DNA of 59,683 nucleotides from positions 105,421 to 165,103 of the forward strand of contig JADFYI010000003.1 in assembly GCA_015233145.1 (NCBI GenBank). Direction: 5' to 3'. Source of the DNA: Candidatus Omnitrophota bacterium (GTDB lineage Bacteria > Omnitrophota > Gorgyraeia > Zapsychrales > Fredricksoniimonadaceae). The translations under genes were made by a program, and so were the position numbers. The stretch's first letter is position 1. Each line of letters begins with the position of its first letter. The notes under the pieces were generated by a model. The model was not told the origin of the DNA. It saw nothing but the letters and a program-made list of their open reading frames with translations, and ran no database searches. Below, piece after piece: positions 2,806-23,303 of this stretch.

Positions 2806-3399
2806 ATGAAAAGAATCATTCTTTGTCTAATGCTCATGGGGTGTGTTATGGTCAATGCCTCTGCCCAGGGGGACGCGAAGAATTTGAAAACTGCCATCTT
2901 TGCGGGTGGTTGCTTTTGGTGTATGCAGCCGCCGTATGACAAACTTCCTGGTGTTATATCAACCACAGTCGGCTATACGGGCGGCGCAAAGCCAAACCCT
3001 TCTTATGAAGAAGTTTCAAGCGGCAAAACCGGCCACCTTGAAGCGGTTCAGGTTCTTTATGATTCCTCAAAGACATCTTATCGGGACCTTTTAAAGGTTT
3101 TTTGGCTGAGTATTGACCCCACTGATCCCAGGGGCCAGTTTGCGGATCAGGGAAGCCAGTATGAAACCGCGATTTTTTATGCTGACGAAGAACAAAAACG
3201 CCTGGCTGAAGAATCGAGACAAGAGCTTGCCGCTTCAGGCCGTTTTTCCAAACCCATTGTGACGCAAATTCTTCTAGCCAGGCCTTTTTATCCGGCCGAA
3301 CAGTATCATCAAAAATATTACCAGAAAAATTCTTTGCACTACAACTTGTACCGGCAAGGCTCCGGGCGCGAAGGTTATCTGGAACGTGTCTGGAAATAA
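2806..3399 (+). CDS. msrA: Peptide-methionine (S)-S-oxide reductase MsrA, with signal peptide
   Basis: GGCFWCMQPPYDKLPGVISTTVGYTGG...NPSYEEVSSGKTGHLEAVQVLYD is the MsrA signature. Hydrophobic N-terminus MKRIILCLMLMGCVMVNASA. Confidence 0.9.
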   Translation: MKRIILCLMLMGCVMVNASAQGDAKNLKTAIFAGGCFWCMQPPYDKLPGVISTTVGYTGGAKPNPSYEEVSSGKTGHLEAVQVLYDSSKTSYRDLLKVFWLSIDPTDPRGQFADQGSQYETAIFYADEEQKRLAEESRQELAASGRFSKPIVTQILLARPFYPAEQYHQKYYQKNSLHYNLYRQGSGREGYLERVWK

Positions 3400-3452
3400 A
3401 AACAAGAGCAAAACGTTAGCGCCCACCATCTTTTTTCGTTACAATAATTTTC

Positions 3453-4319
3453 ATGTGGTTACTGTTGTCGTTTCTTACAGCCGTATGCACCTCGGGGCAG
3501 GACATTCTTTCCAAGCGGGTGTCAGGGCAAGTCAGCCCTTATGTGACGGCCTGGGCAGTTAGCTTTTTTTCCCTTCCATTTCTAGCGGTCTTCTTTTTAT
3601 GGGAAAAACCAGTGGTCTTGTCTGCGCAATTCTGGCCGGCGCTTCTTGCGTCTACCGTGATTCTTACGGTTTCTTCCATCTTCTTTTTTAAGTCTATTGA
3701 AAATTCCGACCTTTCACTGACCATACCTCTTTTGAGTTTTACGCCGCTTTTGCTTTTACTCACCTCACCGATCATGTTAGGAGAGTTCCCGCGTCCTTGG
3801 GGAATTGTGGGCATGGTTTTGATTGTCAGTGGTTCGTACGTTCTTTTTTATCATCCTGAGCAGGAGGATATCCTGGCGCCTTTTCGCCGCCTTTTGAAAG
3901 CCCGCGGAAGCCGTTATATGGTTATTGTGGCCATTCTTTATAGTATTGGGGCTAATGTGGATAAGATCGGGATGCGAAATTCTTCTCCCTTGATATGGAG
4001 TATTTATTTGAATGCGGCTGTTTCTTTTTTTCTTGGCGTTATTATGTTGAATAAAGTGCCTGATGCCCAAAAACAGGTGCAAAAAAGCTGGCCATGGCTT
4101 TTAGGCATTGGGTGTTGTATGGCGCTGGTCATGATGTTTCAGATGTATGCCCTTAAGTTGACGATTGTTCCTTATGTGATTGCCATTAAACGAACCAGTA
4201 TTATCATGACATCTTTGTGGGGGGTGTGGTTTTTGAAGGAAAAAGGCGATCGCCAAAGGGTTTGGGCTGTAGCACTTATGGTGGTTGGGGTATTTGTGAT
4301 CTCATTCAGTAATTCCTGA
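3453..4319 (+). CDS. EamA/DMT-family transporter (10-TM type)
   Basis: Polytopic hydrophobic protein of ~288 aa with two similar halves, typical of the drug/metabolite transporter superfamily. Confidence 0.6.
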   Translation: MWLLLSFLTAVCTSGQDILSKRVSGQVSPYVTAWAVSFFSLPFLAVFFLWEKPVVLSAQFWPALLASTVILTVSSIFFFKSIENSDLSLTIPLLSFTPLLLLLTSPIMLGEFPRPWGIVGMVLIVSGSYVLFYHPEQEDILAPFRRLLKARGSRYMVIVAILYSIGANVDKIGMRNSSPLIWSIYLNAAVSFFLGVIMLNKVPDAQKQVQKSWPWLLGIGCCMALVMMFQMYALKLTIVPYVIAIKRTSIIMTSLWGVWFLKEKGDRQRVWAVALMVVGVFVISFSNS

Positions 4320-4419
4320 GAAAAATATTTAAAAATGTTTTACTTTAGGATTTCGATGTATAATAACTCTGTTTTTATGATTGAGGTGTGAAGAGAAACC
4401 TATTACAAGGAGGGGGAGT

Positions 4420-5103
4420 ATGATAACAGGATGGCATCAGGTAATCATTGAACCGGTCAAGACAATGCTTAATTCTGTTGCGGAATTTATCCCGCAGATG
4501 TTAGGTGCGCTCTTGATTCTTTTGGTGGGCTGGATTGTTGCCAAGGTTTTGGCAGGACTGTTCCAGAAAATTCTGGATCAACTTAAGTTTAATGAGTTTG
4601 CGGCAAAAATTGGGTTGGCAGACCTTCTTATCAAGGGCAATGTGGGGCCGTCAGCTGCTAACCTTTTAAGCGGACTGCTTTATTGGGCCTTGATGATTGT
4701 TGTATTTGCCATTACTGTTGATTCTATTGGCCTTACTGTGGCCGCCAAGCTGCTGGAAAAGGTGACATCTTATATCCCCAATGTTGTTTCTGCGGTCTTT
4801 GTGGCGTTGGTGGGTATGTTTTTGGCAAATCTGATTTCCGGTATTATTAAAGCAACAGCAGCTAATGCCAATGTTAATCGTCCCGAATTTTTGGGAAGCA
4901 TTGCCAAGGGCGCTATTCTGGTTTTTGCGACAGTGATGGCTCTTGATCAGCTGAATATTTCCACTTTCTTTGTGAGCACAACGTTTCAGATTTTCTTTGC
5001 TGCTGTTTGTTTTGCTTTGGCCCTCGCTTTTGGCCTTGGCGGGAAAGATTTGGCGGCAAAGCTTCTCTGGGATTTTTATAATAAGCAGAATGTGAATAAA
5101 TAA
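4420..5103 (+). CDS. Membrane protein with conserved TM-helix repeats (mechanosensitive-channel-associated type)
   Basis: The ATG at 4420 follows AGGAGGGGGAG; the listed TTG at 4381 is unlikely. Repeated hydrophobic helices flanked by charged loops. Intrinsic terminator downstream. Confidence 0.55.
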   Translation: MITGWHQVIIEPVKTMLNSVAEFIPQMLGALLILLVGWIVAKVLAGLFQKILDQLKFNEFAAKIGLADLLIKGNVGPSAANLLSGLLYWALMIVVFAITVDSIGLTVAAKLLEKVTSYIPNVVSAVFVALVGMFLANLISGIIKATAANANVNRPEFLGSIAKGAILVFATVMALDQLNISTFFVSTTFQIFFAAVCFALALAFGLGGKDLAAKLLWDFYNKQNVNK

Positions 5104-5133
5104 ATAGTTTGAAAGAGGAAGCAGGTTTTATTA

Positions 5134-5177
5134 AGAAACGCAGATCTATAGTTTTTAAATCTGCGTTTCTTTTTTTG
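5134..5177 (+). terminator. Rho-independent terminator
   Basis: AGAAACGCAGAT (5134-5145) pairs with ATCTGCGTTTCT (5159-5170), followed by a T-run. Confidence 0.8.
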
Positions 5178-5270
5178 TAATGATGAAACTTTTTTAAGTC
5201 AGGGCGTGTCTAATGGTCATAAGGGCCATAAAGACATTCCTATATCTAAAAATAATAAACAGGAGGTTGT

Positions 5271-5531
5271 ATGAAGAAGTCGGGTTTAGCGTTAGGGGCA
5301 GTGATTGTTTTAACAGGGGTTTTTGCTTTGGCGTCCATTCCAAGCGTTTATGCTGCAGAAGCTGCGGTTCAGACGAATAGCGCAGTAGCTGCTTCTGATA
5401 CCATGGCTCCTACCGTGAAGCCCGCTCATAAGAAGAGTAAGGGGCATAAGAAGTCAGAGAAAAAGCATCACAAAAAGGTGGAAAAGACTTCTGATACAAC
5501 AACGCCTGTGACGACTAACGCTGTAAAATAG
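5271..5531 (+). CDS. Small secreted Lys/His-rich protein
   Basis: Strong RBS (CAGGAGG), signal peptide MKKSGLALGAVIVLTGVFALASIPSVYA, and a basic low-complexity centre (KKSKGHKKSEKKHHKK). Confidence 0.6.
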   Translation: MKKSGLALGAVIVLTGVFALASIPSVYAAEAAVQTNSAVAASDTMAPTVKPAHKKSKGHKKSEKKHHKKVEKTSDTTTPVTTNAVK

Positions 5532-5641
5532 TCGTTTGAAAGAATAATCAGAGCCAGGGATGATGTGGCAGTGAATACTTTTCAAAGTATCCATTTGCTT
5601 TTTATTCCTGGCTTTTTTTATTTTTTAAGGATAATAATGTC

Positions 5642-15251: not shown

Positions 15252-15300
15252 GGAAATTTTAAATTGAATAAGAAGAGGTTTTTTGGCATTTTTATGTTTT

Positions 15301-15425
15301 TAAATAACTCTGGCTTGGACGGAGCCAAGCCAGAGTTATTTAATTCTTTCTGAATTTTTGGGAACAACATTTTTCGCCTGTTCAGGTAAGAAAAATGTTG
15401 TTCTATGGAAAATTAAATAAGGAGC
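15301..15425 (+). repeat. Bipartite intergenic element, copy A (terminator-like hairpin 1, T-rich linker, 5'-UTR hairpin 2, conserved RBS block)
   Basis: Hairpin 1 is a perfect 18-bp stem, TAAATAACTCTGGCTTGG (15301-15318) with CCAAGCCAGAGTTATTTA (15325-15342). Hairpin 2 pairs GAACAACATTTTTC (15362-15375) with GAAAAATGTTGTTC (15390-15403). It is followed by TATGGAAAATTAAATAAGGAG. Copies B and C are listed below. Confidence 0.85.
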
Positions 15426-15431
15426 TTAGTT

Positions 15432-17192
15432 ATGTCAACGGTCACTATGGTCAAGGCGCTTATTAATGGTATCGAGGTGAAAGTCCCGGCAGGGACAACC
15501 ATTTTAGATGCCGCCAGAAGCGTCCAGGTTAATATTCCGACTTTGTGCAAACATCCGGACCTGGCAGCCTCTGCAGGCTGCGGCATTTGCATTGTTAAGG
15601 CAAAAAACAACCGCAAGATGCTCCGCGCCTGTTGTACGCCGCTTGAAGAGGGCATGGATATCACCACCCATGACCCTGAAATTGTTCAGACCCGCCGCAC
15701 GGTTTTGGAACTCATTATGGCCAACCACCCTACGGAATGTTTGACGTGCGGGCGCAACAGGGATTGCGAGCTTCAGAAGATTGCAGCGGATTTCGGCATC
15801 CGCGAAGACCTTTATGAGCGTGTCCTGCCTGACCTTCCCATTGACAGGTCAACAGGCACGATTGTCATGGAGCCTAAAAAGTGTATTAAATGCGGACGCT
15901 GCATTGATGTCTGCCAGAACGTGCAGGATGTCTGGGCGCTTTCATTTATTGACAGGGGATTTAAGACGCGCATTTCTCCGGCGGGGGATATTAAGCTCGC
16001 AGAGTCTCCTTGCGTGCGCTGCGGCCAGTGTTCGGCGCATTGCCCGACAGGCGCCATTTTCGAGAACGATGAAACACAAAAGGTATGGTCGCTTTTGCAG
16101 GATCCGGACAAGCATTGTGTTGTCCAGATAGCTCCGGCTGTCCGTGTGGCTGTGGGAGAGGGGTTTGGGTATCCTGTGGGCACGAATCTGACCAAGAAAC
16201 TTTATTCGTTGCTCCGCCGCCTGGGATTCAAGGCTGTGTTTGACACGAATTTCGGCGCTGACCTGACCATTATGGAAGAAGGCACGGAATTTGTGGAACG
16301 CTTTGTAAACAAAAATGGCCCGCTTCCGCTCATTACCAGCTGCTGCCCGGCATGGGTGGATTATCTTGAAAAATATTATGGCGACATGATCAGCCTTTTT
16401 TCGTCGACAAAAAGCCCGCATGAGATGGTGGGTGCGCTGACCAAGACGTATTACGCCCAGAAAAATAATATTGATCCGGCCAAGATCAAGGTTGTTTCAA
16501 TCATGCCGTGCACAGCAAAAAAGTATGAGATTTTAAGGTCTGAAGAGATGGCGTCTTCCGGGTATCAGGACGTGGATGTGTCTTTAACCACGCGTGAACT
16601 TATCCGCATGATCAAGCAGGCGGGCGTTGACTTTAAACAGCTTCCTGATGAAGATGCCGATCTTATGCTCGGTGATTATGCGGGCGCCGGCACTATTTTC
16701 GGCGCCACGGGTGGTGTTATGGAGGCTGCGCTTCGTACGGCTTATTTTGTGATTACAGGCGAGGGTCTCAAAGACGTGAATTTTACCAATGTTCGCGGCC
16801 TTCAGGGGGTCAAGGAAACGTCGGTGGATATTAAGGGCACGGAGGTGAAAATCGCCGTGGCGCATGGCCTTAAGAATGTCAAGTTTGTCATGGATAAGGT
16901 GCGTGATGCCATCTTAAATAACAAGCCTTTGCCGTACCATTATATCGAGGTCATGGCCTGCCCTGGCGGATGCGTAGGCGGCGGCGGCCAGCCCTATATG
17001 GTCACGGATGACATCAGAAAACAGCGCGCCAAGGGGCTTTATGACGAAGATGCCGGGCTGCCGCACCGTTGCGCGCATGAGAACCCGCATGTTCAAGAGC
17101 TTTACAGAAACTTTTTAGAGAAACCTTTAAGCCATAAGTCGCACCAGTTGTTGCATACCAAGTACACGGCCAGGCCGTTGTATATCAAATAA
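15432..17192 (+). CDS. hydA: [FeFe]-hydrogenase catalytic subunit (M3-type, N-terminal 2Fe-2S and 4Fe-4S domains)
   Basis: H-cluster motifs TSCCPAW, MPCTAKKYE and EVMACPGGCVGGGGQP. N-terminal ferredoxin-like Cys clusters. Confidence 0.95.
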   Translation: MSTVTMVKALINGIEVKVPAGTTILDAARSVQVNIPTLCKHPDLAASAGCGICIVKAKNNRKMLRACCTPLEEGMDITTHDPEIVQTRRTVLELIMANHPTECLTCGRNRDCELQKIAADFGIREDLYERVLPDLPIDRSTGTIVMEPKKCIKCGRCIDVCQNVQDVWALSFIDRGFKTRISPAGDIKLAESPCVRCGQCSAHCPTGAIFENDETQKVWSLLQDPDKHCVVQIAPAVRVAVGEGFGYPVGTNLTKKLYSLLRRLGFKAVFDTNFGADLTIMEEGTEFVERFVNKNGPLPLITSCCPAWVDYLEKYYGDMISLFSSTKSPHEMVGALTKTYYAQKNNIDPAKIKVVSIMPCTAKKYEILRSEEMASSGYQDVDVSLTTRELIRMIKQAGVDFKQLPDEDADLMLGDYAGAGTIFGATGGVMEAALRTAYFVITGEGLKDVNFTNVRGLQGVKETSVDIKGTEVKIAVAHGLKNVKFVMDKVRDAILNNKPLPYHYIEVMACPGGCVGGGGQPYMVTDDIRKQRAKGLYDEDAGLPHRCAHENPHVQELYRNFLEKPLSHKSHQLLHTKYTARPLYIK

Positions 17193-17199
17193 AGTTTTG

Positions 17200-17208
17200 T
17201 GGTATAAT
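17200..17208 (+). promoter_or_regulatory. Extended -10 promoter (TGgTATAAT) for the hyd maturation operon leader
   Basis: TGG TATAAT at 17200-17208, just after the hydA stop. A weak -35 (TTGTAT) sits at 17178-17183 with a 19-nt spacer. Confidence 0.45.
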
Positions 17209-17324
17209 AATTAAAATCTGAGTTGCCGGGGGTAAAGCCCGGGTAACAAGGAGACAAGAAGTTTAAAGTATCTGAGGGAAGGGCTTACGCCTAACCTGAG
17301 GGAAAAGATAAGACAATCTTAACC

Positions 17325-17357
17325 CCGGTTTTGCGTAAGCGAAACCGGTTTTTTTTT
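17325..17357 (+). terminator. Intrinsic terminator inside the leader of the hyd maturation operon (attenuator candidate)
   Basis: CCGGTTT (17325-17331) pairs with AAACCGG (17342-17348), followed by nine T (17349-17357). GGAGG and the ATG at 17367 follow immediately. Confidence 0.7.
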
Positions 17358-17366
17358 GGAGGAAAC

Positions 17367-17615
17367 ATGGACAAACGACTCGGATTTGTTGGCATCATTA
17401 TTGAAAACCGTTTAAAAGTCGCGCCGTTAGTGAACAAGATTCTTTCAGAGTATGGCGAGGAAATTATTGCCCGCGTCGGTGTCCCTTATAAAGAACGGCA
17501 TTGCAGTGTTATTACCTTGACAGTTGATATGACCACCGATGAACTGGGGGGCTTGACTGGAAAACTTGGGGCCATTGAGGGCGTGACCGTGCGTTCAGGC
17601 CTTGCAAAACAATAG
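17367..17615 (+). CDS. TM1266-family iron-only hydrogenase system regulator (ACT/NikR-C-like small protein)
   Basis: MDKRLGFVGIIIENR...ARVGVPYKERHCSVITLTVD pattern and its position directly upstream of hydF/G/E. The ATG at 17367 follows GGAGG; the listed TTG at 17331 lies inside the terminator. Confidence 0.7.
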   Translation: MDKRLGFVGIIIENRLKVAPLVNKILSEYGEEIIARVGVPYKERHCSVITLTVDMTTDELGGLTGKLGAIEGVTVRSGLAKQ

Positions 17616-17623
17616 GATCATTT

Positions 17624-18994
17624 ATGGATTTTAGAACAGAGCTCGATATGCTTGGGGAAAAACAAGTTCCGGCCAATGCCTACTGGGGCATTCATACCCA
17701 GCGGGCCATTGAGAATTTTTCTTTAAGTTCCCGCCGGGTGCCGTTGGCCCTGATACGGGCTGTAGCCCAGGTCAAGAAAGCCGCGGCCTTGGCCAATGAA
17801 GAACTGGGTTTCCTGCCAAAGGACAAAGCGTGTGCGATTGTGGCGGCCTGTGATGATGTCATGGATGGAAGTTTAAGCGATGCCTTTCCTTTGGATGCGC
17901 TTCAAGGGGGTGCGGGAACTTCTACCAATATGAATGTGAATGAAGTCGTGGCCAACCGCGCCATTGAAATTTTGGGAGGAAAAAAGGGGGAATATTCGCT
18001 GGTGCATCCTTTGGAGCATGTGAATCTTCACCAGTCCACCAATGATGTTTATCCCACGGCCTTAAAGATTGCCCTTATCAGGGAACTTCAGCGGACAAGT
18101 GAGGCCGTGGCTGCCTTGCAGGGTGCTTTTCAGCGCAAGGAAAAAGAATTTGCGTCTATCGTCAAGATTGGCCGCAGTGAGCTTCAGGATGCTGTGCCCA
18201 TGACACTGGGAGCTGAATTTTCAGGATTTAGTGAGGCCATATCACGTGACCGCTGGCGTATTTTTAAATGTGAAGAGCGCCTTCGGGTGTTGAATATCGG
18301 TGCGACTGCCATTGGCACAGGCCTGGGGAGCCCGCGGGATTATATTTTTCTGGTGATCGAGAAGTTAAGAGATTTAACGGGCTTAGGGATTAGCCGTGGA
18401 GAAAATCCTGTCGGAGAAACAGCCAATGCCGATGTCTTTGTGGAAGTCTCCGGCATTTTGAAAGCTCATGCCGCGAGCCTTGTGAAGATTTCAGGAGACC
18501 TCCGCCTTTTGAATTACCTGGGTGAGATCCGTTTGCCGCAGCTTCAGGCCGGCTCATCCATCATGCCGGGGAAGGTGAATCCTGTCATGCTTGAGGCCGC
18601 CATCCAGGTGGGGTTACAGGTGATGGCCAATGACGGGCTTGTGACTGAAACGGTTTCCCGGGGAACTCTGCAGATCAATGAATTTTTACCGTTACTGGCG
18701 AGCGCGATTCTGGAATCCGTCGAGATTATGACTGCGATTAATTTGTCTTTGACGGAGTATATTGATGGGATCAAGGCTGATGAGGCCAGGTGCCGGTATT
18801 ATTTTGACCGCAGCCGCACGATTGTGACAGCGTTTTTGCCGGTGATCGGCTATGACAGGGCGAATGGGCTTTTAAAAGAATTTGATGCTGCGGGCTGCGA
18901 GGATTTTAGAGCATTTTTGACAGAGAAGCTGGGGGAAGAGGTTGTAGAAAAGATTCTGGCGCCTCATAACTTAATGGCACTAGGGTATCGATAA
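17624..18994 (+). CDS. Aspartate ammonia-lyase/fumarase-family lyase (hydrogenase-maturation-linked type)
   Basis: GSSIMPGKVNP signature (GSxxMxxKxN), TNMNVNEV, HQSTNDVYPT. Confidence 0.85.
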   Translation: MDFRTELDMLGEKQVPANAYWGIHTQRAIENFSLSSRRVPLALIRAVAQVKKAAALANEELGFLPKDKACAIVAACDDVMDGSLSDAFPLDALQGGAGTSTNMNVNEVVANRAIEILGGKKGEYSLVHPLEHVNLHQSTNDVYPTALKIALIRELQRTSEAVAALQGAFQRKEKEFASIVKIGRSELQDAVPMTLGAEFSGFSEAISRDRWRIFKCEERLRVLNIGATAIGTGLGSPRDYIFLVIEKLRDLTGLGISRGENPVGETANADVFVEVSGILKAHAASLVKISGDLRLLNYLGEIRLPQLQAGSSIMPGKVNPVMLEAAIQVGLQVMANDGLVTETVSRGTLQINEFLPLLASAILESVEIMTAINLSLTEYIDGIKADEARCRYYFDRSRTIVTAFLPVIGYDRANGLLKEFDAAGCEDFRAFLTEKLGEEVVEKILAPHNLMALGYR

Positions 18995-19001
18995 TTTTTT
19001 T

Positions 19002-19045
19002 CATGTTGACAGCTTTGTCTGCTTGTCGCAGACGCTGTCAACATG
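19002..19045 (+). other. Intercistronic stem-loop between the lyase gene and hydF
   Basis: CATGTTGACAGC (19002-19013) pairs with GCTGTCAACATG (19034-19045). An inner stem pairs GTCTGC with GCAGAC. No downstream T-run. Confidence 0.7.
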
Positions 19046-19069
19046 ATTTCGTTAGGGAATAGAGTGATT

Positions 19070-20320
19070 ATGCAAACAACACCAAAATCATTAAGGCTTC
19101 ATATCGGAATTTTTGGCCGCACCAATGTCGGGAAATCGAGTTTTTTGAACATGCTGGCAGGCCAGGACGTGGCCATTACCTCGCCTGTGGCCGGAACAAC
19201 GACTGATGTGGTGGAAAAGCCCACGGAGCTTTTGCCTTTGGGGCCTGTGGTTTTTCTGGATACGGCAGGGCTTCTTGACGTATCTCTTTTGGGAGAAAAA
19301 CGCCTGGAGCGGACCCGTCGGGCGCTTGACCGTTCAGATGTGGCCCTGGTTTTGGCAGAGCCTGGAGTGTGGGAAGAGGCAGAACAGGCGTTGGTCAAGG
19401 AGCTTAAAGAAAAAAAGAAGCCGTTTATTGTTATTGTTAACAAATCTGATTTATCGCCTTCAGCCAAAGAATTTTCAGAAACTTTAAAATCAGCGGGCGC
19501 ACAAACACTTTTGTGTTCAAGCATTATTAAGGATGGCCGGGAAGCTTTTATGAATGACCTGAAGCGTTTGCTGATTCAAATCTGCCCTGAAGATTTTTTA
19601 AGGCCGCCGGCCTTGATCGGCGACCTTGTTCCCTCGGGTGGATTGGCCGTCCTGGTGGTCCCTATTGATCTTCAGGCTCCCAAGGGCCGGCTTATTCTGC
19701 CGCAGGTGCAGACGATTCGTGACGCGCTGGATAATGACGCGGCTACCCTTGTGGTCAAAGAGCGCGAATACGCCCATGCTTTGCAAAATTTAAAGAATCC
19801 GCCGGCTGTTGTGGTGTGCGATTCGCAGGTGATTATGAAAGTCGTGGCTGATACGCCCAAGGATGTGAAGTGTACGACTTTTTCAATCCTTTTTGCGCGG
19901 TTTAAGGGTGACCTTGTTGAGCTGGCTCAGGGAGCCGCGCATATTGATGCGCTTAAGCCCCATGATAAAGTGCTTATTGCCGAGAGCTGTTCCCATCATG
20001 CGGCGGAAGATGATATTGGCCGCGTCAAGATTCCGCGCTGGCTCAAGCAATATGTAGGAGGAGATTTGAAGGTTGACCATTTTGCCGGCCGGGATTATCC
20101 GGCGAACTTAAAAGATTATAAGCTGATTATTCACTGCGGGTCATGCATGTTGACGCGCGGCGAGATGCTTTTTCGGATTCATCAGGCCAGAGAAAAAGGG
20201 GTTCCCATTACCAATTACGGAGTGGCCATAGCGTTTGTCCAGGGTGTTTTACCGCGTGCCTTGTCGCCGTTTCCGGCGGCATTGAGCGCGTTTGAAAAAG
20301 AGAGGTTATTATGCCGATAG
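19070..20320 (+). CDS. hydF: [FeFe]-hydrogenase H-cluster maturation GTPase HydF
   Basis: GRTNVGKSSFLN (G1), DTAG, NKSD. C-terminal cluster ligands CSHH...HCGSCM. The start at 19070 is preferred because the ATG at 19043 lies inside the stem-loop. Confidence 0.9.
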   Translation: MQTTPKSLRLHIGIFGRTNVGKSSFLNMLAGQDVAITSPVAGTTTDVVEKPTELLPLGPVVFLDTAGLLDVSLLGEKRLERTRRALDRSDVALVLAEPGVWEEAEQALVKELKEKKKPFIVIVNKSDLSPSAKEFSETLKSAGAQTLLCSSIIKDGREAFMNDLKRLLIQICPEDFLRPPALIGDLVPSGGLAVLVVPIDLQAPKGRLILPQVQTIRDALDNDAATLVVKEREYAHALQNLKNPPAVVVCDSQVIMKVVADTPKDVKCTTFSILFARFKGDLVELAQGAAHIDALKPHDKVLIAESCSHHAAEDDIGRVKIPRWLKQYVGGDLKVDHFAGRDYPANLKDYKLIIHCGSCMLTRGEMLFRIHQAREKGVPITNYGVAIAFVQGVLPRALSPFPAALSAFEKERLLCR

Positions 20321-21807
20321 AAACAGTCCCCGGCGCCTGGGTTAATAAGCGCATCAAGGAAGATGAGATCACAAAATACATGGAGCATGGCCGTGATTTT
20401 ATCCCGGATGATGAGATTGCCTTCAAAATCAAAAATGCGCCGAAAGACCCTGCCCCTCAGCAAGTGCGGGATATTTTGAAAAAATCCATGGCCATAAAAG
20501 ACCTTACACCAGACGAGGTGGCGATCCTTATTAATGTGAAGGACAAATCCCTTTTGGAAGAAATGCGGGACACGGCCTTTAAGATCAAGGTCAAGATTTA
20601 TGATAACCGCATTGTGACGTTTGCCCCTTTTTATCTGGGGAACTTTTGCGTGAACAGCTGCGCCTATTGCGGGTTCAGCAAGGATAATGCCACGGCTAAA
20701 CGCAAGGTCCTTAATGAACAGGAAATCCGAAAGGAAGTCGAGGTTCTGGCCGGGAAGATCGGCCACAAGCGTTTGATTGTTGTTTATGGCGAGCATCCGA
20801 AAAATGATGTGGATTATATTGTCGAAAGCCTGAAAACGATTTATGCCGTGAAAGTCAAAACAAAAAACGGGCATGGCTCTATCCGCCGGGTGAATGTGAA
20901 TGCGCCTGCTTTTTCTGTTGATGATTTGAAGAAAATCAATGAGGCCGGCATCGGCACTTATCAGGTTTTTCAGGAAACTTACCATAAAGAGACTTATGCC
21001 CGGATGCATCCGGTCAGCACGCTTAAAGGCAATTACCGTTGGCGGCTTTATTGCATGCACCGGGCCATGGAGGCAGGGATTGATGATGTGGGCATTGGCG
21101 CGCTTTTTGGCCTTTACGACTGGCGTTTTGAGTTGATGGCCTTGATTTATCACACCCAGGAGCTTGAAAAAAAGCTGGGGGTTGGGGCGCACACGATTTC
21201 TTTTCCGCGGCTTGTGCCGGCCTTGAATTCTGTTATTACCCCGGATTGGCCGTATTTGGTCAATGACGAGGATTTTAAGAAGATCATGATGATTATCCGC
21301 CTGGCTGTGCCTTATACCGGGATGATCATTACCGCGCGCGAGAAAGCTTCCATTCGCGATGAAGCCCTGATGCTGGGGGTGACTCAAATGGATGCCTCGA
21401 GCCGTATTGCGATCGGCGGATATTCTGATGTCGTGACGGCCCAGGAGAAAAATAAACAGCAATTTATTTTGGGAGATACCCGCAGCCTTGATGAGTTAAT
21501 CCGTGATTTTGCCCAAAAAGGGATTATCACGTCGTTTTGTACCGCCGGATACCGCTGCGGCAGGACAGGCAAGTGCATCATGGATTTGCTGCGCAGCGGC
21601 GCTGAAGGCAAGTTTTGCAAGCTGAACGCTGTTTTGACGTTTCAGGAATGGCTCGATGATTTTGGCAGTGAAGATACTCGCCGGATGGGTCTGCCCCTGA
21701 TTGAAAAGGAAATTGCTGAGATCAAGGCCAAAAACCCCAAGGCCCTGGATATGTTTTTGCAATACCATGCACGGATTAAGAAGGGGGAAAGGGATTTATA
21801 TTTGTAA
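20311..21807 (+). CDS. hydG: [FeFe]-hydrogenase H-cluster radical SAM maturase HydG
   Basis: CVNSCAYCGF (CX3CX2C) and C-terminal CTAGYRCGRTGKC cluster region. 10-nt overlap with hydF. Confidence 0.9.
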   Translation: MPIETVPGAWVNKRIKEDEITKYMEHGRDFIPDDEIAFKIKNAPKDPAPQQVRDILKKSMAIKDLTPDEVAILINVKDKSLLEEMRDTAFKIKVKIYDNRIVTFAPFYLGNFCVNSCAYCGFSKDNATAKRKVLNEQEIRKEVEVLAGKIGHKRLIVVYGEHPKNDVDYIVESLKTIYAVKVKTKNGHGSIRRVNVNAPAFSVDDLKKINEAGIGTYQVFQETYHKETYARMHPVSTLKGNYRWRLYCMHRAMEAGIDDVGIGALFGLYDWRFELMALIYHTQELEKKLGVGAHTISFPRLVPALNSVITPDWPYLVNDEDFKKIMMIIRLAVPYTGMIITAREKASIRDEALMLGVTQMDASSRIAIGGYSDVVTAQEKNKQQFILGDTRSLDELIRDFAQKGIITSFCTAGYRCGRTGKCIMDLLRSGAEGKFCKLNAVLTFQEWLDDFGSEDTRRMGLPLIEKEIAEIKAKNPKALDMFLQYHARIKKGERDLYL

Positions 21808-22007
21808 GGGCTGCAAGTGGCGTGATTTGTTGTCTCCTTACATTTTTCTCGCGGACGTTTGGCCGCCCCAGCGTGGCGGCCGGCACTCGACGGTCTCGCT
21901 CGCTCTTCGGCATCACATTGTGATGCCGAAACCATGCCCGCTCGCTCGACCGACGCCGCTCGAAAAATTCCAGTCGCCAACATCACGCCCCGCGAAGGCT
22001 TAAAGTT
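21808..22007 (+). other. GC-rich, highly self-complementary spacer between hydG and the next ORF (candidate structured RNA or element)
   Basis: Closing stem GGCGTGATttGTTG (21819-21832) with CAACATCACGCC (21978-21989). Hairpin GGCCGCC/GGCGGCC (21861-21881). Perfect 12-bp palindrome TTCGGCATCACA t TGTGATGCCGAA (21906-21930), flanked by CTCGCTCGCTC / CGCTCGCTCGA direct repeats. Confidence 0.6.
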
Positions 22008-22280
22008 ATGAGTATTTCTAAAACTAATCTCGAAGTTGTTTTTGCGTTTGAAAGTTTACGGCAGAAGCTTGAGGAAGAATCCGGCGGGCCTGTGCATTTG
22101 GTTAAAATTGTGGGGCCCCGCTGGTCGTATGTGGCGGGCACGGTGCCCGAGGAGCTTCCTTGCGTGGTGCCTGAGCGCGTGATTTTGAATGACGACTGGG
22201 CGCTTATGTTTTATCCGGCCCATAACCGTGCTGTTGATAGTCAGCGTATCCGTGAGCTTTTTTTAAGAAGCATTTCTTGA
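22008..22280 (+). CDS. Hypothetical 90-aa protein embedded between hydG and hydE
   Basis: Intact ORF ending 9 nt before hydE. No recognisable motif. Confidence 0.5.
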   Translation: MSISKTNLEVVFAFESLRQKLEEESGGPVHLVKIVGPRWSYVAGTVPEELPCVVPERVILNDDWALMFYPAHNRAVDSQRIRELFLRSIS

Positions 22281-22289
22281 GGGGCTGCC

Positions 22290-23303
22290 ATGAGGCGTGA
22301 TGAGATCATAAAACAGTTAAAGAATCCTGACACGTCTGAACTTTTTCGTGAGGCCGACCGTGTGCGCAAGGAACAGGTGGGCGATGGTGTCCATTTGCGC
22401 GGACTTATTGAATTTTCCAATGCCTGCGTACGGGATTGCCTTTATTGCGGGCTTCGCCGGTCTAACCGTGATGTGAAGCGGTATCAGATGAGTATTGATG
22501 AGATTTTTGAAACTGTTCAAACCGCGCAAAAGCTTGGCTATAGAAGTGTTGTGCTCCAGTCCGGGGAAAACTGCCAGTATCCGACGGATGCCATGTGCGG
22601 GCTTCTTTCGAAGATCAAGAAGGAATTTAACCTCGCCGTGACGTTGTCCATAGGGGAGAAAACGCGGGAAGAGTATGCGGCGTTTAAGGCGGCAGGGGCT
22701 GACCGGTATCTGTTGCGTTTTGAGACTTCGGCGGAGAAATTGTTTTCAAAGCTCAAGCCTGACTCGTCGTACGGGCAAAGGATGCTCTGTTTACAGTGGC
22801 TGCGCGAGCTGGGGTTTCAGGTCGGCTCCGGCATTATGGTCGGGCTTCCCGGGCAGGCCGAAGAGATGATCGCCGACGACATCCTCCTTATGGAAAAACT
22901 TGACCTGGACATGATCGGCATTGGCCCTTTTATTGCCAACCCGCAAACCCCTTTAAATGATGCGCCGTCCGGCACGCTCGACTTGACCCTTAAGACGCTC
23001 GCCCTTATCCGGATTGTGACGAAAAACACCCATCTTCCCGCTACAACAGCCATGGGGTCCATGGACCCTCAGGGACGGGAGAAGGCCCTTCAGTGCGGTG
23101 CGAATGTCCTGATGCCGAATGTGACGCCCACCATGTATCGGGAGCATTATCAGTTATACCCTAACAAGATCTGCATAAAAGATAAACCCGGCGATTGCTG
23201 GATGTGTATCTCCGGCATGGTCCGCATGCTGGGAAGAGTTGTCGCCGAAGACCCGGGCCACAGCCTTAAATTTTCTTCCCGGTTATTCAGGGGTTCTTAT
23301 TAA
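22290..23303 (+). CDS. hydE: [FeFe]-hydrogenase H-cluster radical SAM maturase HydE
   Basis: CVRDCLYCGLRRSN cluster motif. BioB-like fold sequence (GEKTREEYAAFKAAGADRYLLRFETS). Confidence 0.9.
   Translation: MRRDEIIKQLKNPDTSELFREADRVRKEQVGDGVHLRGLIEFSNACVRDCLYCGLRRSNRDVKRYQMSIDEIFETVQTAQKLGYRSVVLQSGENCQYPTDAMCGLLSKIKKEFNLAVTLSIGEKTREEYAAFKAAGADRYLLRFETSAEKLFSKLKPDSSYGQRMLCLQWLRELGFQVGSGIMVGLPGQAEEMIADDILLMEKLDLDMIGIGPFIANPQTPLNDAPSGTLDLTLKTLALIRIVTKNTHLPATTAMGSMDPQGREKALQCGANVLMPNVTPTMYREHYQLYPNKICIKDKPGDCWMCISGMVRMLGRVVAEDPGHSLKFSSRLFRGSY

Follow-up and report, generated by a model that had tools for sequence, protein, structure and literature searches.

A conserved hairpin and terminator form a probable transcription attenuator ahead of the [FeFe]-hydrogenase maturation genes of an Omnitrophota bacterium

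The [FeFe]-hydrogenase maturation genes of a Candidatus Omnitrophota bacterium are preceded by a structured leader that we have analysed in a stretch of 59,683 nucleotides (assembly GCA_015233145.1, contig JADFYI010000003.1, positions 105,421 to 165,103 of the forward strand). This whole stretch is called the window here, and positions are counted from its first letter. The leader fills the spacer between hydA, which ends at 17192 and encodes a group A6 NADH-dependent [FeFe] hydrogenase (810.8 bits, cut-off 765), and a gene of the TM1266 family. The spacer is very probably the 5' leader of the H-cluster maturase operon and a transcription attenuator. It carries a predicted promoter, a small symmetric hairpin motif conserved in related loci and an intrinsic terminator whose 5' arm can pair instead with the motif strands. 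The leader appears to be a new RNA family within a known kind of mechanism, attenuation. The most complete explanation we can offer, an OFF-type attenuator with the TM1266 product as its likely effector, has in our judgement an even chance of being right.

A promoter, a structured leader and a conditional terminator ahead of the TM1266, aspartase, hydF, hydG and hydE genes had been proposed in a sequence-only reading of the window. Conservation, covariation and a competing antiterminator, all in silico, now support that proposal. The parts of the leader and the gene that follows it are:

17200..17208, + strand: predicted extended -10 promoter TGgTATAAT (hexamer 17203-17208), read from the sequence
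17217..17252, + strand: upstream degenerate tandem copy of the motif (copy A); covariance model CM R1 with filters off, 10.4 bits at 17211-17259
17271..17302, + strand: main copy of the motif, the putative 'aptamer' or anti-antiterminator; CM R1, 29.9 bits, match 17265-17310
17286..17337, + strand: predicted antiterminator alternative, 17286-17302 pairing with 17323-17337 in the minimum free energy (MFE) fold of transcripts ending at 17338
17325..17357, + strand: intrinsic terminator, stem CCGGUUUUGC / GCGAAACCGG, loop GUAA, U9 at 17349-17357; terminator scan
17358..17369, + strand: Shine-Dalgarno GGAGG (17358-17362) and ATG (17367-17369) of the TM1266 gene, from the sequence
17367..17615, + strand: TM1266-family gene, 82 amino acids; TIGR03959 93.9 bits (cut-off 60.8), PF21699 96.8 bits (cut-off 27)

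The features named in the sequence-only reading lie within 1 nucleotide of where it had placed them; the TM1266 gene begins with the ATG at 17367, not at 17368.

Conservation and structure of the motif

We collected 80 genomic loci encoding relatives of TM1266 (individual loci are cited by L number) and read the 200 nucleotides upstream of each. CM R1 was built from 66 of these loci, with 14 matched loci outside the seed. In the window and in 79 of the 80 close loci it gives a single match, which lies on the coding strand ahead of the TM1266 gene. In a search of 530 kb the window match has E = 1e-4, with no other window match at E <= 1. Nothing besides the locus matches appears in the 530 kb at E < 0.1, the next candidate scoring 15 bits (E = 0.77). 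The eightieth locus, L043 (about 2820-2925), has the motif with a structured insertion of about 75 nucleotides in the variable stem P2, which is why the model misses it.

The consensus is 5' (U)CCUG[C/A]GGnnA[G/A]G, a variable hairpin or stem-loop, then CUGAAnCCAAGGG 3'. Three helices are modelled: P1 (CCU paired with GGG), P1b, which is short, and P2, whose base is formed by the conserved GG and CU. Together they make a stem of pseudo-two-fold symmetry with two purine-rich internal loops, each strand approximating CCUG-R-N3-4-RA-GGG. About 15 positions are more than 90% conserved among 122 unique sequences, and most of them lie in or beside the two internal loops.

Of the alignment cells, 92% are paired; column shuffles reach 84%, and a register shifted by one position gives 60-73%. 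The covariation score, 0.367 against 0.214 +/- 0.011 in shuffles, is above all 500 shuffles and all slid registers. Six of the nine pairs show changes on both sides, and compensatory changes occur in P1 (C-G to U-A), P1b (G-C, G-U, A-U and C-G) and P2. The element is in this respect a conserved structured domain with covariation support, as is looked for in a riboswitch aptamer.

The symmetry is perfect in Marinitoga, where the duplex reads CCU|GA|GAUG|AA|GGG with CCU|GA|CAUC|AA|GGG. Several other distant loci have the same layout (CCU|GA|NNNN|AA|GGG with CCU|GA|N'N'N'N'|AA|GGG). The Omnitrophota type of the motif has a larger second loop and a P1b of 2-3 bp. A family-wide P1b of 4 bp was rejected: columns 14:100 and 15:99 pair in 39% and 15% of the Omnitrophota-type sequences, so that the perfectly symmetric duplex belongs only to some lineages. 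A kink-turn was also rejected on inspection, since the loops are 2x2 (window and Thermotogae) or at most 2x3 (Omnitrophota type) and include no 3-nucleotide bulge.

The leader of the window

The spacer between hydA and the TM1266 gene folds with z = -3.5, and none of 200 shuffles folds as well. TGgTATAAT stands just after hydA, as the sequence-only reading had noted; having no match to a -35 hexamer, it is not listed by a two-hexamer promoter scan. Among 124 unique related leaders there are 27 instances of a TGn followed by at least four of the six -10 positions, where shuffles give 15.4 +/- 3.7. Most of them lie 5-15 nucleotides upstream of the motif, which is also the usual place of the -10 element, often with TGn, in single-copy relatives. 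This pattern makes a promoter at 17200-17208 plausible. Transcription would then start at about 17214-17216, just upstream of the first motif copy; the -10 hexamer ends 8 nucleotides before that copy.

Copy A (E = 0.006 in a 251-nucleotide search) has a P1 of UCU (17217-19) with GGA (17250-52), a GA/AA internal loop (17220-21 / 17248-49) and a long continuous inner stem (17222-17231 / 17238-17247). Its hairpin is present in the MFE fold of the window. The inner stem includes CCGGG (17226-17230) paired with CCCGG (17239-17243); the hairpin previously described from these letters is indeed present at 17226-17243, and it belongs to copy A rather than being a feature of its own. An equivalent of copy A is seen in the close relative L001 as a second model match (10.2 bits) and in L003 by reading. 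The inner stems of the upstream copy differ among the window, L001 and L003, yet they are paired in all three.

The main copy is a mild variant of the family motif. Its P1 joins U17271-C17272-U17273 to G17300-G17301-G17302 and contains two G-U pairs. The first loop is GA (17274-75) opposite GA (17298-99) and the second AA (17279-80) opposite AA (17293-94). P1b joins GGG (17276-78) to CCU (17295-97), and P2 joins GGGC (17281-84) to GCCU (17289-92) around a UUAC loop. Three CTGAG-containing repeats had been reported in the leader. They are found at 17216-17222, 17270-17284 and 17295-17308, the first of them (ATCTGAG) being the 5' strand of copy A and not an independent repeat.

The terminator is a G+C-rich stem-loop (17325-17348) of 10 pairs, six of them G-C, with pair probabilities of 0.93-1.0 in the full-length ensemble. 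Followed directly by the U-run, it has the form expected of an intrinsic terminator. As already described, the run of nine T residues abuts the ribosome-binding site, GGAGG beginning at 17358, and this leaves no room for a promoter between terminator and TM1266 gene.

Competition between terminator and antiterminator

A comparable terminator follows the motif by 12-34 nucleotides in about 75 of the 80 related loci. Its 5' arm usually starts (A/G)UCCC(A/G)G, complementary to the GGGA of the motif 3' end, and the motif 3' strand pairs with the terminator 5' arm in 59 of 73 loci. The upper part of this arm and the loop contain, in many loci, ...CCGCAGG..., which is complementary to the motif 5' strand; the complement extends over 9 of 9 positions in L066 and is perfect (12 of 12) in L128.

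The first control for this pairing, shuffling of the G-rich 3' strand, discriminated poorly (5.2 against 4.2 pairs). Because composition alone gives pairing, we used instead a permutation of own against other terminators and a control with shuffled downstream sequence. The motif 5' strand binds its own terminator at -10.7 kcal/mol and those of other loci at -9.3 kcal/mol, and none of 5000 permutations is as good. Of 73 loci whose transcripts are cut just before the terminator 3' arm, 72 have no P1 in the MFE fold. To impose the motif on these cut transcripts costs a median of 7.7 kcal/mol in the family, compared with 3.6 kcal/mol when the downstream sequence is shuffled. In the window, where the transcript ends at 17338, forcing the main motif costs 10.1 kcal/mol. 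In full-length transcripts the terminator is formed in 65 of 73 loci.

The predicted antiterminator of the window is made by the P2 3' arm and the motif 3' strand on one side and the terminator 5' arm and loop on the other. It encloses a small hairpin, P3 (AAGAU, 17305-09, with AUCUU, 17316-20). In silico, some nucleotides thus serve either the antiterminator or the terminator, and an upstream structure in turn precludes the antiterminator; this is the arrangement of an attenuator.

No sequencing run containing the window was found. One related locus, L075, is represented in a sludge RNA-seq library by a 232-nucleotide contig identical to the locus. The contig covers the leader at 2735-2932, including the motif (2819-2853), and ends at 2932, just after GGUUUUAAGAAG and about 70 nucleotides before the TM1266 start codon. 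Depth is zero over 2940-3195, the start of the TM1266 gene, in a library of very low depth whose contigs cannot show absence, so that this result is suggestive only.

Distribution and gene context

Distant loci were sought with the Thermotoga maritima sequence of structure 2NZC, and eight were examined. Seven of them carry the motif, 50-70 nucleotides upstream of the gene and at 19.5-35 bits: Thermotoga caldifontis, Marinitoga, Thermosipho, Coprothermobacter, Cloacimonas, a Bacteroidetes contig and one more genome. In the eighth (L206, Ignavibacteriae) a TM1266-like gene is accompanied by EamA. Conservation of the leader in relatives, on which the sequence-only reading had staked its proposal, is therefore seen in 79 of the 80 close and seven of the eight distant loci, with covariation. 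When L043 is counted, motif and TM1266 gene occur together in 87 of 88 TM1266 loci (80 close and 8 distant). From these matches the motif appears to be spread over at least 10 phylum-level lineages, including the cultivable Thermotogae.

The position of the TM1266 gene is constant. It is the first gene after the motif in all 86 hyd-linked loci with tabulated gene order (85 of them with a model match), while the order of aspA, hydF, hydG and hydE varies among the 88 tabulated TM1266 loci. In about 60 of these 88, hydA lies directly upstream on the same strand.

To obtain a view that does not depend on the gene, metagenomes were scanned with a gene-independent DNA pattern; candidates were scored with the covariance model and their downstream genes identified by tblastn. 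Forty-five matches reach at least 26 bits, with the following contexts:

TM1266 gene, then hyd maturase genes: 36 matches
hydG directly, with its own -10 element and terminator and no TM1266 gene: 5 matches
locus cut by the contig end: 1 match
inside an apparent coding sequence, no terminator, taken as chance: 3 matches

The TM1266 gene is thus first after the motif in 36 of the 41 complete high-scoring matches (about 88%). Pattern matches below about 25 bits that have no hyd genes and no terminator and lie inside open reading frames (ORFs) were rejected as chance; their number fits the expected background.

Loci with hydG directly after the motif (L128, L157, L117/L129, L091, L092 and L116) form one lineage and have their own TATAAT element and terminator; neither hydE nor hydF is found beside the stand-alone hydG in the available sequence of up to about 10 kb. 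All credible matches precede either TM1266-led hyd maturase operons or hydG, a coherent pathway of the kind expected for a riboswitch, with one exception. This is L205 (a Bacteroidetes metagenome contig, 2893-5541), in which motif, terminator and TM1266-like gene stand ahead of genes for a TonB-dependent receptor and an EamA transporter, and no hyd genes are present on the contig.

The distance between motif and gene can be enlarged by insertions. In several Omnitrophota metagenome-assembled genomes (MAGs; L005, L008 and L007) there are palindromic G/C-rich elements (CCCCTCCCC...GGGGAGGGG, or GGGGCGGTTCATGAACCGCCC), which in L005 and L008 lie between the leader terminator and the TM1266 start. 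They resemble repeats of the REP (repetitive extragenic palindromic) type, and the motif has been moved up to 300-450 nucleotides from the TM1266 gene.

The TM1266 protein as candidate effector

The product of the first gene belongs to the TM1266 family, with scores over the curated cut-offs and an ACT/NikR-C-like fold. Its closest relatives (83-89% identity) come from Candidatus Omnitrophota MAGs. The AlphaFold2 model has a predicted local distance difference test score (pLDDT) of 89, and in a fold search it comes closest to 2NZC, followed by the C-domain of NikR and by ACT domains. The match to 2NZC, the solved T. maritima homologue with four chains in the entry, has E = 8e-21 and a template modelling score (TM-score) of 0.93. 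No DNA-binding domain was found in the window protein by domain and fold searches. The earlier description of a small ACT/NikR-C-like product lacking such a domain agrees with profile, model and fold searches alike.

Gene linkage makes this protein the best supported candidate for the effector, and we lean slightly towards it. An autoregulatory RNA-binding protein is favoured because the TM1266 gene always comes first, even in a non-hyd context. Four observations are counted in its favour: the gene stands almost obligatorily right after the RNA, whatever the gene order; RNA and gene have moved jointly to a place without hyd genes (L205); two-fold symmetry is seen in the RNA, and 2NZC has four chains; and the annotated regulator lacks any DNA-binding domain. 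Whether TM1266 proteins are the founders of a new class of ACT-fold RNA-binding attenuation proteins seems to us a question that could go either way.

Proposed mechanism

In the proposed mechanism, transcription would begin at the extended -10 promoter just past hydA, and the nascent RNA would first form the conserved symmetric hairpin (in the window, one canonical and one degenerate upstream copy). Nearest-neighbour energies make this hairpin a weak one. If unaided, its 3' half would be captured by the terminator 5' arm and, in many relatives, its 5' strand would be captured by that arm as well. The captured state would be the antiterminator, with read-through into TM1266, aspA, hydF, hydG and hydE. 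An effector that clamps the hairpin would leave the terminator 5' arm free, and transcription would end at 17349-17357, one base before the ribosome-binding site. A stabilised hairpin would mean termination because the terminator 5' arm is the alternative partner of the motif strands. The effector would be the TM1266-family ACT/NikR-C-like protein, binding the symmetric hairpin as an oligomer, probably under the control of a small ligand. The outcome would be negative feedback with PyrR/TRAP-like logic.

Several points weigh against parts of this explanation. The OFF direction of the switch is taken from the logic of the structures and is offered provisionally. Shuffled downstream sequence already loses P1 in 74% of cases; the loss of P1 is therefore a quantitative effect, not an all-or-none one. 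In the window the full-length MFE fold holds the terminator without any effector, and P1 has two G-U pairs; because the terminator forms unaided, the switch must be kinetic. In the five to seven metagenome loci with hydG directly after the motif, the available sequence (up to about 10 kb) contains no TM1266 gene, so the protein would there act in trans or be absent, and at L206, one of the eight distant loci, the TM1266-like gene has no detectable motif. The fold search gave no specific RNA-binding relative, only generic ferredoxin-like RNA binders (ribosomal S6) far down the list, and RNA binding by a domain of the ACT or NikR-C type is not known to us. By reading, the protein is not markedly basic, with about 11 K/R to 10 D/E.

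Alternative explanations

The most serious alternative is a classical riboswitch, in which the symmetric hairpin would bind a small molecule or metal ion without a protein and so cause termination. We consider it possible but doubtful. The TM1266 gene would then be another cargo gene, for example for a small ligand-binding accessory protein of H-cluster assembly. Motifs directly upstream of hydG without a TM1266 gene (L128, L157, L117/L129, L091 and L092) speak for this alternative. The RNA is also conserved at the nucleotide level over at least 10 phylum-level lineages, its invariant internal-loop purines are typical of aptamers, and the terminator/antiterminator platform is a standard one. 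At about 45 nucleotides it is small, as are several validated hairpin-type riboswitches; tandem G-A/A-A loops are known metal-binding sites; and RNA binding by the TM1266 fold has no precedent. A riboswitch leaves unexplained, however, why TM1266 directly follows the motif in about 88% of matches, whatever the order of the other genes, and why RNA and gene moved together at L205. No ligand suggests itself for the OFF control of maturases and a TonB-dependent receptor alike, and Rfam holds no similar aptamer. In a more specific form, to which we assign the same doubtful standing, the two symmetry-related GA/AA loops would bind a molecule of H-cluster assembly (a metal ion such as Fe2+, or a product or by-product of the HydG pathway). 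The extreme form, in which the ligand is the organometallic Fe(CO)2(CN)-cysteine synthon, is a long shot.

The other alternatives are less probable than a riboswitch. The hairpin and U9 could simply be a leaky terminator of the hydrogenase structural operon that keeps the maturases at a lower fixed ratio, the conserved hairpin being an element for stability, processing or RNase entry. Two observations would fit this: in about 60 of the 88 tabulated TM1266 loci hydA is the next gene upstream, in the same orientation and with no other terminator between, and the terminator forms unaided in the full-length MFE fold. We think it improbable, since motif, terminator and own -10 element also occur in loci whose upstream neighbour is divergent or a gene other than hydA (for example L016, L025, L062, L201-L205 and the hydG-direct loci). 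Moreover, the terminator 5' arm co-varies with the motif strands, and native downstream sequence competes about 4 kcal/mol harder than shuffled sequence, which a plain terminator does not need. The sequence-only reading had suggested a different antiterminator, GCCGGGG (17225-17231) with CCCCGG (17323-17328). On paper six G-C pairs are possible, and sequestering this segment within the upstream copy would free the terminator, consistently with the proposed attenuator. The suggestion did not hold up: with the pairing forced the fold reaches -35.3 kcal/mol against an MFE of -51.7 (about 16 kcal/mol worse), the upstream hairpin is confined to the window, L001 and L003 while most loci have no sequence between promoter and motif, and the local pairing of 17286-17302 with 17323-17337 is predicted in its place. 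We judge it very improbable. Ribosome-mediated attenuation through a leader peptide, or a T-box leader sensing tRNA, is scarcely credible on inspection. The SD (Shine-Dalgarno)-like AAGGAG at 17248-17253 could be taken for the start of a leader peptide, but it is followed by no start codon and its AAGGA forms the 3' strand of copy A. The conserved element accepts insertions and deletions of lengths not divisible by three, the length of P2 is variable, and no T-box or leader family of Rfam is matched.

Comparison with known systems

No Rfam 15 family (4227 models) is matched at its gathering score by the window at 16900-17700 (searched at E <= 10), by twenty related loci or by L061. The window has sub-threshold matches (E <= 10) to L10_leader (20.3 bits), P36 and psRNA6. 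We found no description of the leader RNA in the searchable literature on TM1266, on hydE/F/G riboswitches and on orphan riboswitches or in three motif-discovery papers, their supplementary motif lists lying outside the search. The earlier remark that no described riboswitch or attenuator was known for these genes agrees with both searches.

The closest parallel in architecture is with the PyrR attenuators of Bacillus and relatives (RF00515), which have a similar three-hairpin layout of anti-antiterminator, antiterminator and terminator. There the first gene of the operon under control encodes the regulator, whose binding causes termination. The best-scoring relative, L061, however, scores no more than 18.9 bits with the PyrR model, whose gathering score is 54, and the loop consensus of PyrR targets is missing. 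PyrR has a phosphoribosyltransferase fold, whereas the candidate of the window is an ACT/NikR-C-like protein of 82 amino acids; the RNA of the window is a two-fold symmetric stem with GA/AA loops. The L10 leader (RF00557), the best Rfam match in the window, is likewise an autoregulatory leader ending in a terminator, but it scores far below its gathering score of 44 (E = 0.68), only the terminator and an A-rich linker match, and its gene context is unrelated. Both the L10-leader and PyrR matches were rejected as sub-threshold and driven by terminator and linker.

TRAP (trp) and HutP (hut) are, like the proposed effector, small ligand-activated oligomeric proteins that choose between terminator and antiterminator, and TRAP acts in trans on other transcripts, which would parallel the hydG-direct copies of the motif. 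Their targets are arrays of (G/U)AG triplets in single-stranded RNA, whereas the conserved unit here is a structured hairpin, and HutP acts as an antiterminator (ON). A TRAP/HutP target was rejected on inspection: the leader has four irregularly spaced GAG (17220, 17252, 17274 and 17298) and no UAG.

Small hairpin-type terminator riboswitches such as NAD+-I/nadA and xanthine/NMT1 are about 45-50 nucleotides long and consist of one stem with conserved internal loops. They share with the leader the terminator platform, the OFF logic proposed here and occasional tandem copies. The leader differs in having no Rfam riboswitch match and in its near-obligatory linkage to one small protein gene, which would be unusual for them. 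As to the protein, the fold resembles the C-terminal metal-binding, ACT-like tetramerisation domain of NikR (TM-score 0.8), and it is because of this likeness that the TM1266 family is annotated 'putative regulator'. The N-terminal ribbon-helix-helix domain with which NikR binds DNA is missing altogether from TM1266 proteins, and in sequence alignment T. maritima TM1266 does not keep the His-Cys pair seen in the window's clade.

The operon and neighbouring features

The TM1266 gene and the genes that follow it on the same strand, from 17624 to 23303, are supported as an operon that depends on read-through of the leader:

17624-18994, + strand: aspartate ammonia-lyase-like gene (aspA); NCBIfam aspartate ammonia-lyase subfamily, 561 bits
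19043-20320, + strand: hydF; NCBIfam HydF, 532 bits
20311-21807, + strand: hydG; NCBIfam HydG, 470 bits
22008-22280, + strand: conserved small ORF of 90 amino acids between hydG and hydE; no Pfam or NCBIfam match
22290-23303, + strand: hydE; NCBIfam HydE, 367 bits

The presence of aspA in an H-cluster maturase operon is explained by the finding that ammonia-lyases supply the nitrogen of the dithiomethylamine bridge, AspA serving as the ammonium donor for the dithiomethylamine ligand (PMC11736057).

A small ORF (89-111 amino acids) stands right after hydG, or overlaps its end, in the window, in Thermotogae and in the hydG-direct lineage (window 22008-22280, L201 4668-4949, L208 4656-4925 and the post-hydG ORFs of L157, L117 and L128). 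The copies share a motif of approximately VW....IxG(K/R/P)R(W/I/T)S(H/Y/F)(I/V). BLASTP comparisons across lineages give E = 1e-5 to 2e-3, and the ORF of the window itself 4e-4 to 2e-3. From this recurrence the product may be an unrecognised accessory protein of H-cluster maturation.

Upstream of hydA, between it and a NuoF-like gene, there is a near-perfect inverted repeat of 19 bp (TTAAATAACTCTGGCTTGG...CCAAGCCAGAGTTATTTAA) at 15300-15343. It is not a canonical terminator since no U-run follows the repeat.

Implications

To our knowledge, the regulation of HydE, HydF and HydG maturase synthesis is essentially unknown, and TM1266 is a 'putative regulator' by fold similarity alone. If the switch reading is true, the leader RNA would be a first clue to how the H-cluster pathway is regulated. 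The question can be tested because the RNA extends over so many lineages, some of them cultivable. It also gives TM1266 a specific and checkable role, the binding of a defined 45-nucleotide RNA. Should the protein prove to be the effector, it would add a new fold to the few RNA-binding attenuation proteins; should the RNA be a riboswitch, it would represent a new ligand class tied to hydrogen metabolism and, with an organometallic ligand, the first riboswitch linked to an organometallic cofactor pathway. In engineered hydrogen producers the element could be used to restrain or adjust maturase expression, and it can serve as an annotation marker for the hyd operons of uncultured anaerobes.

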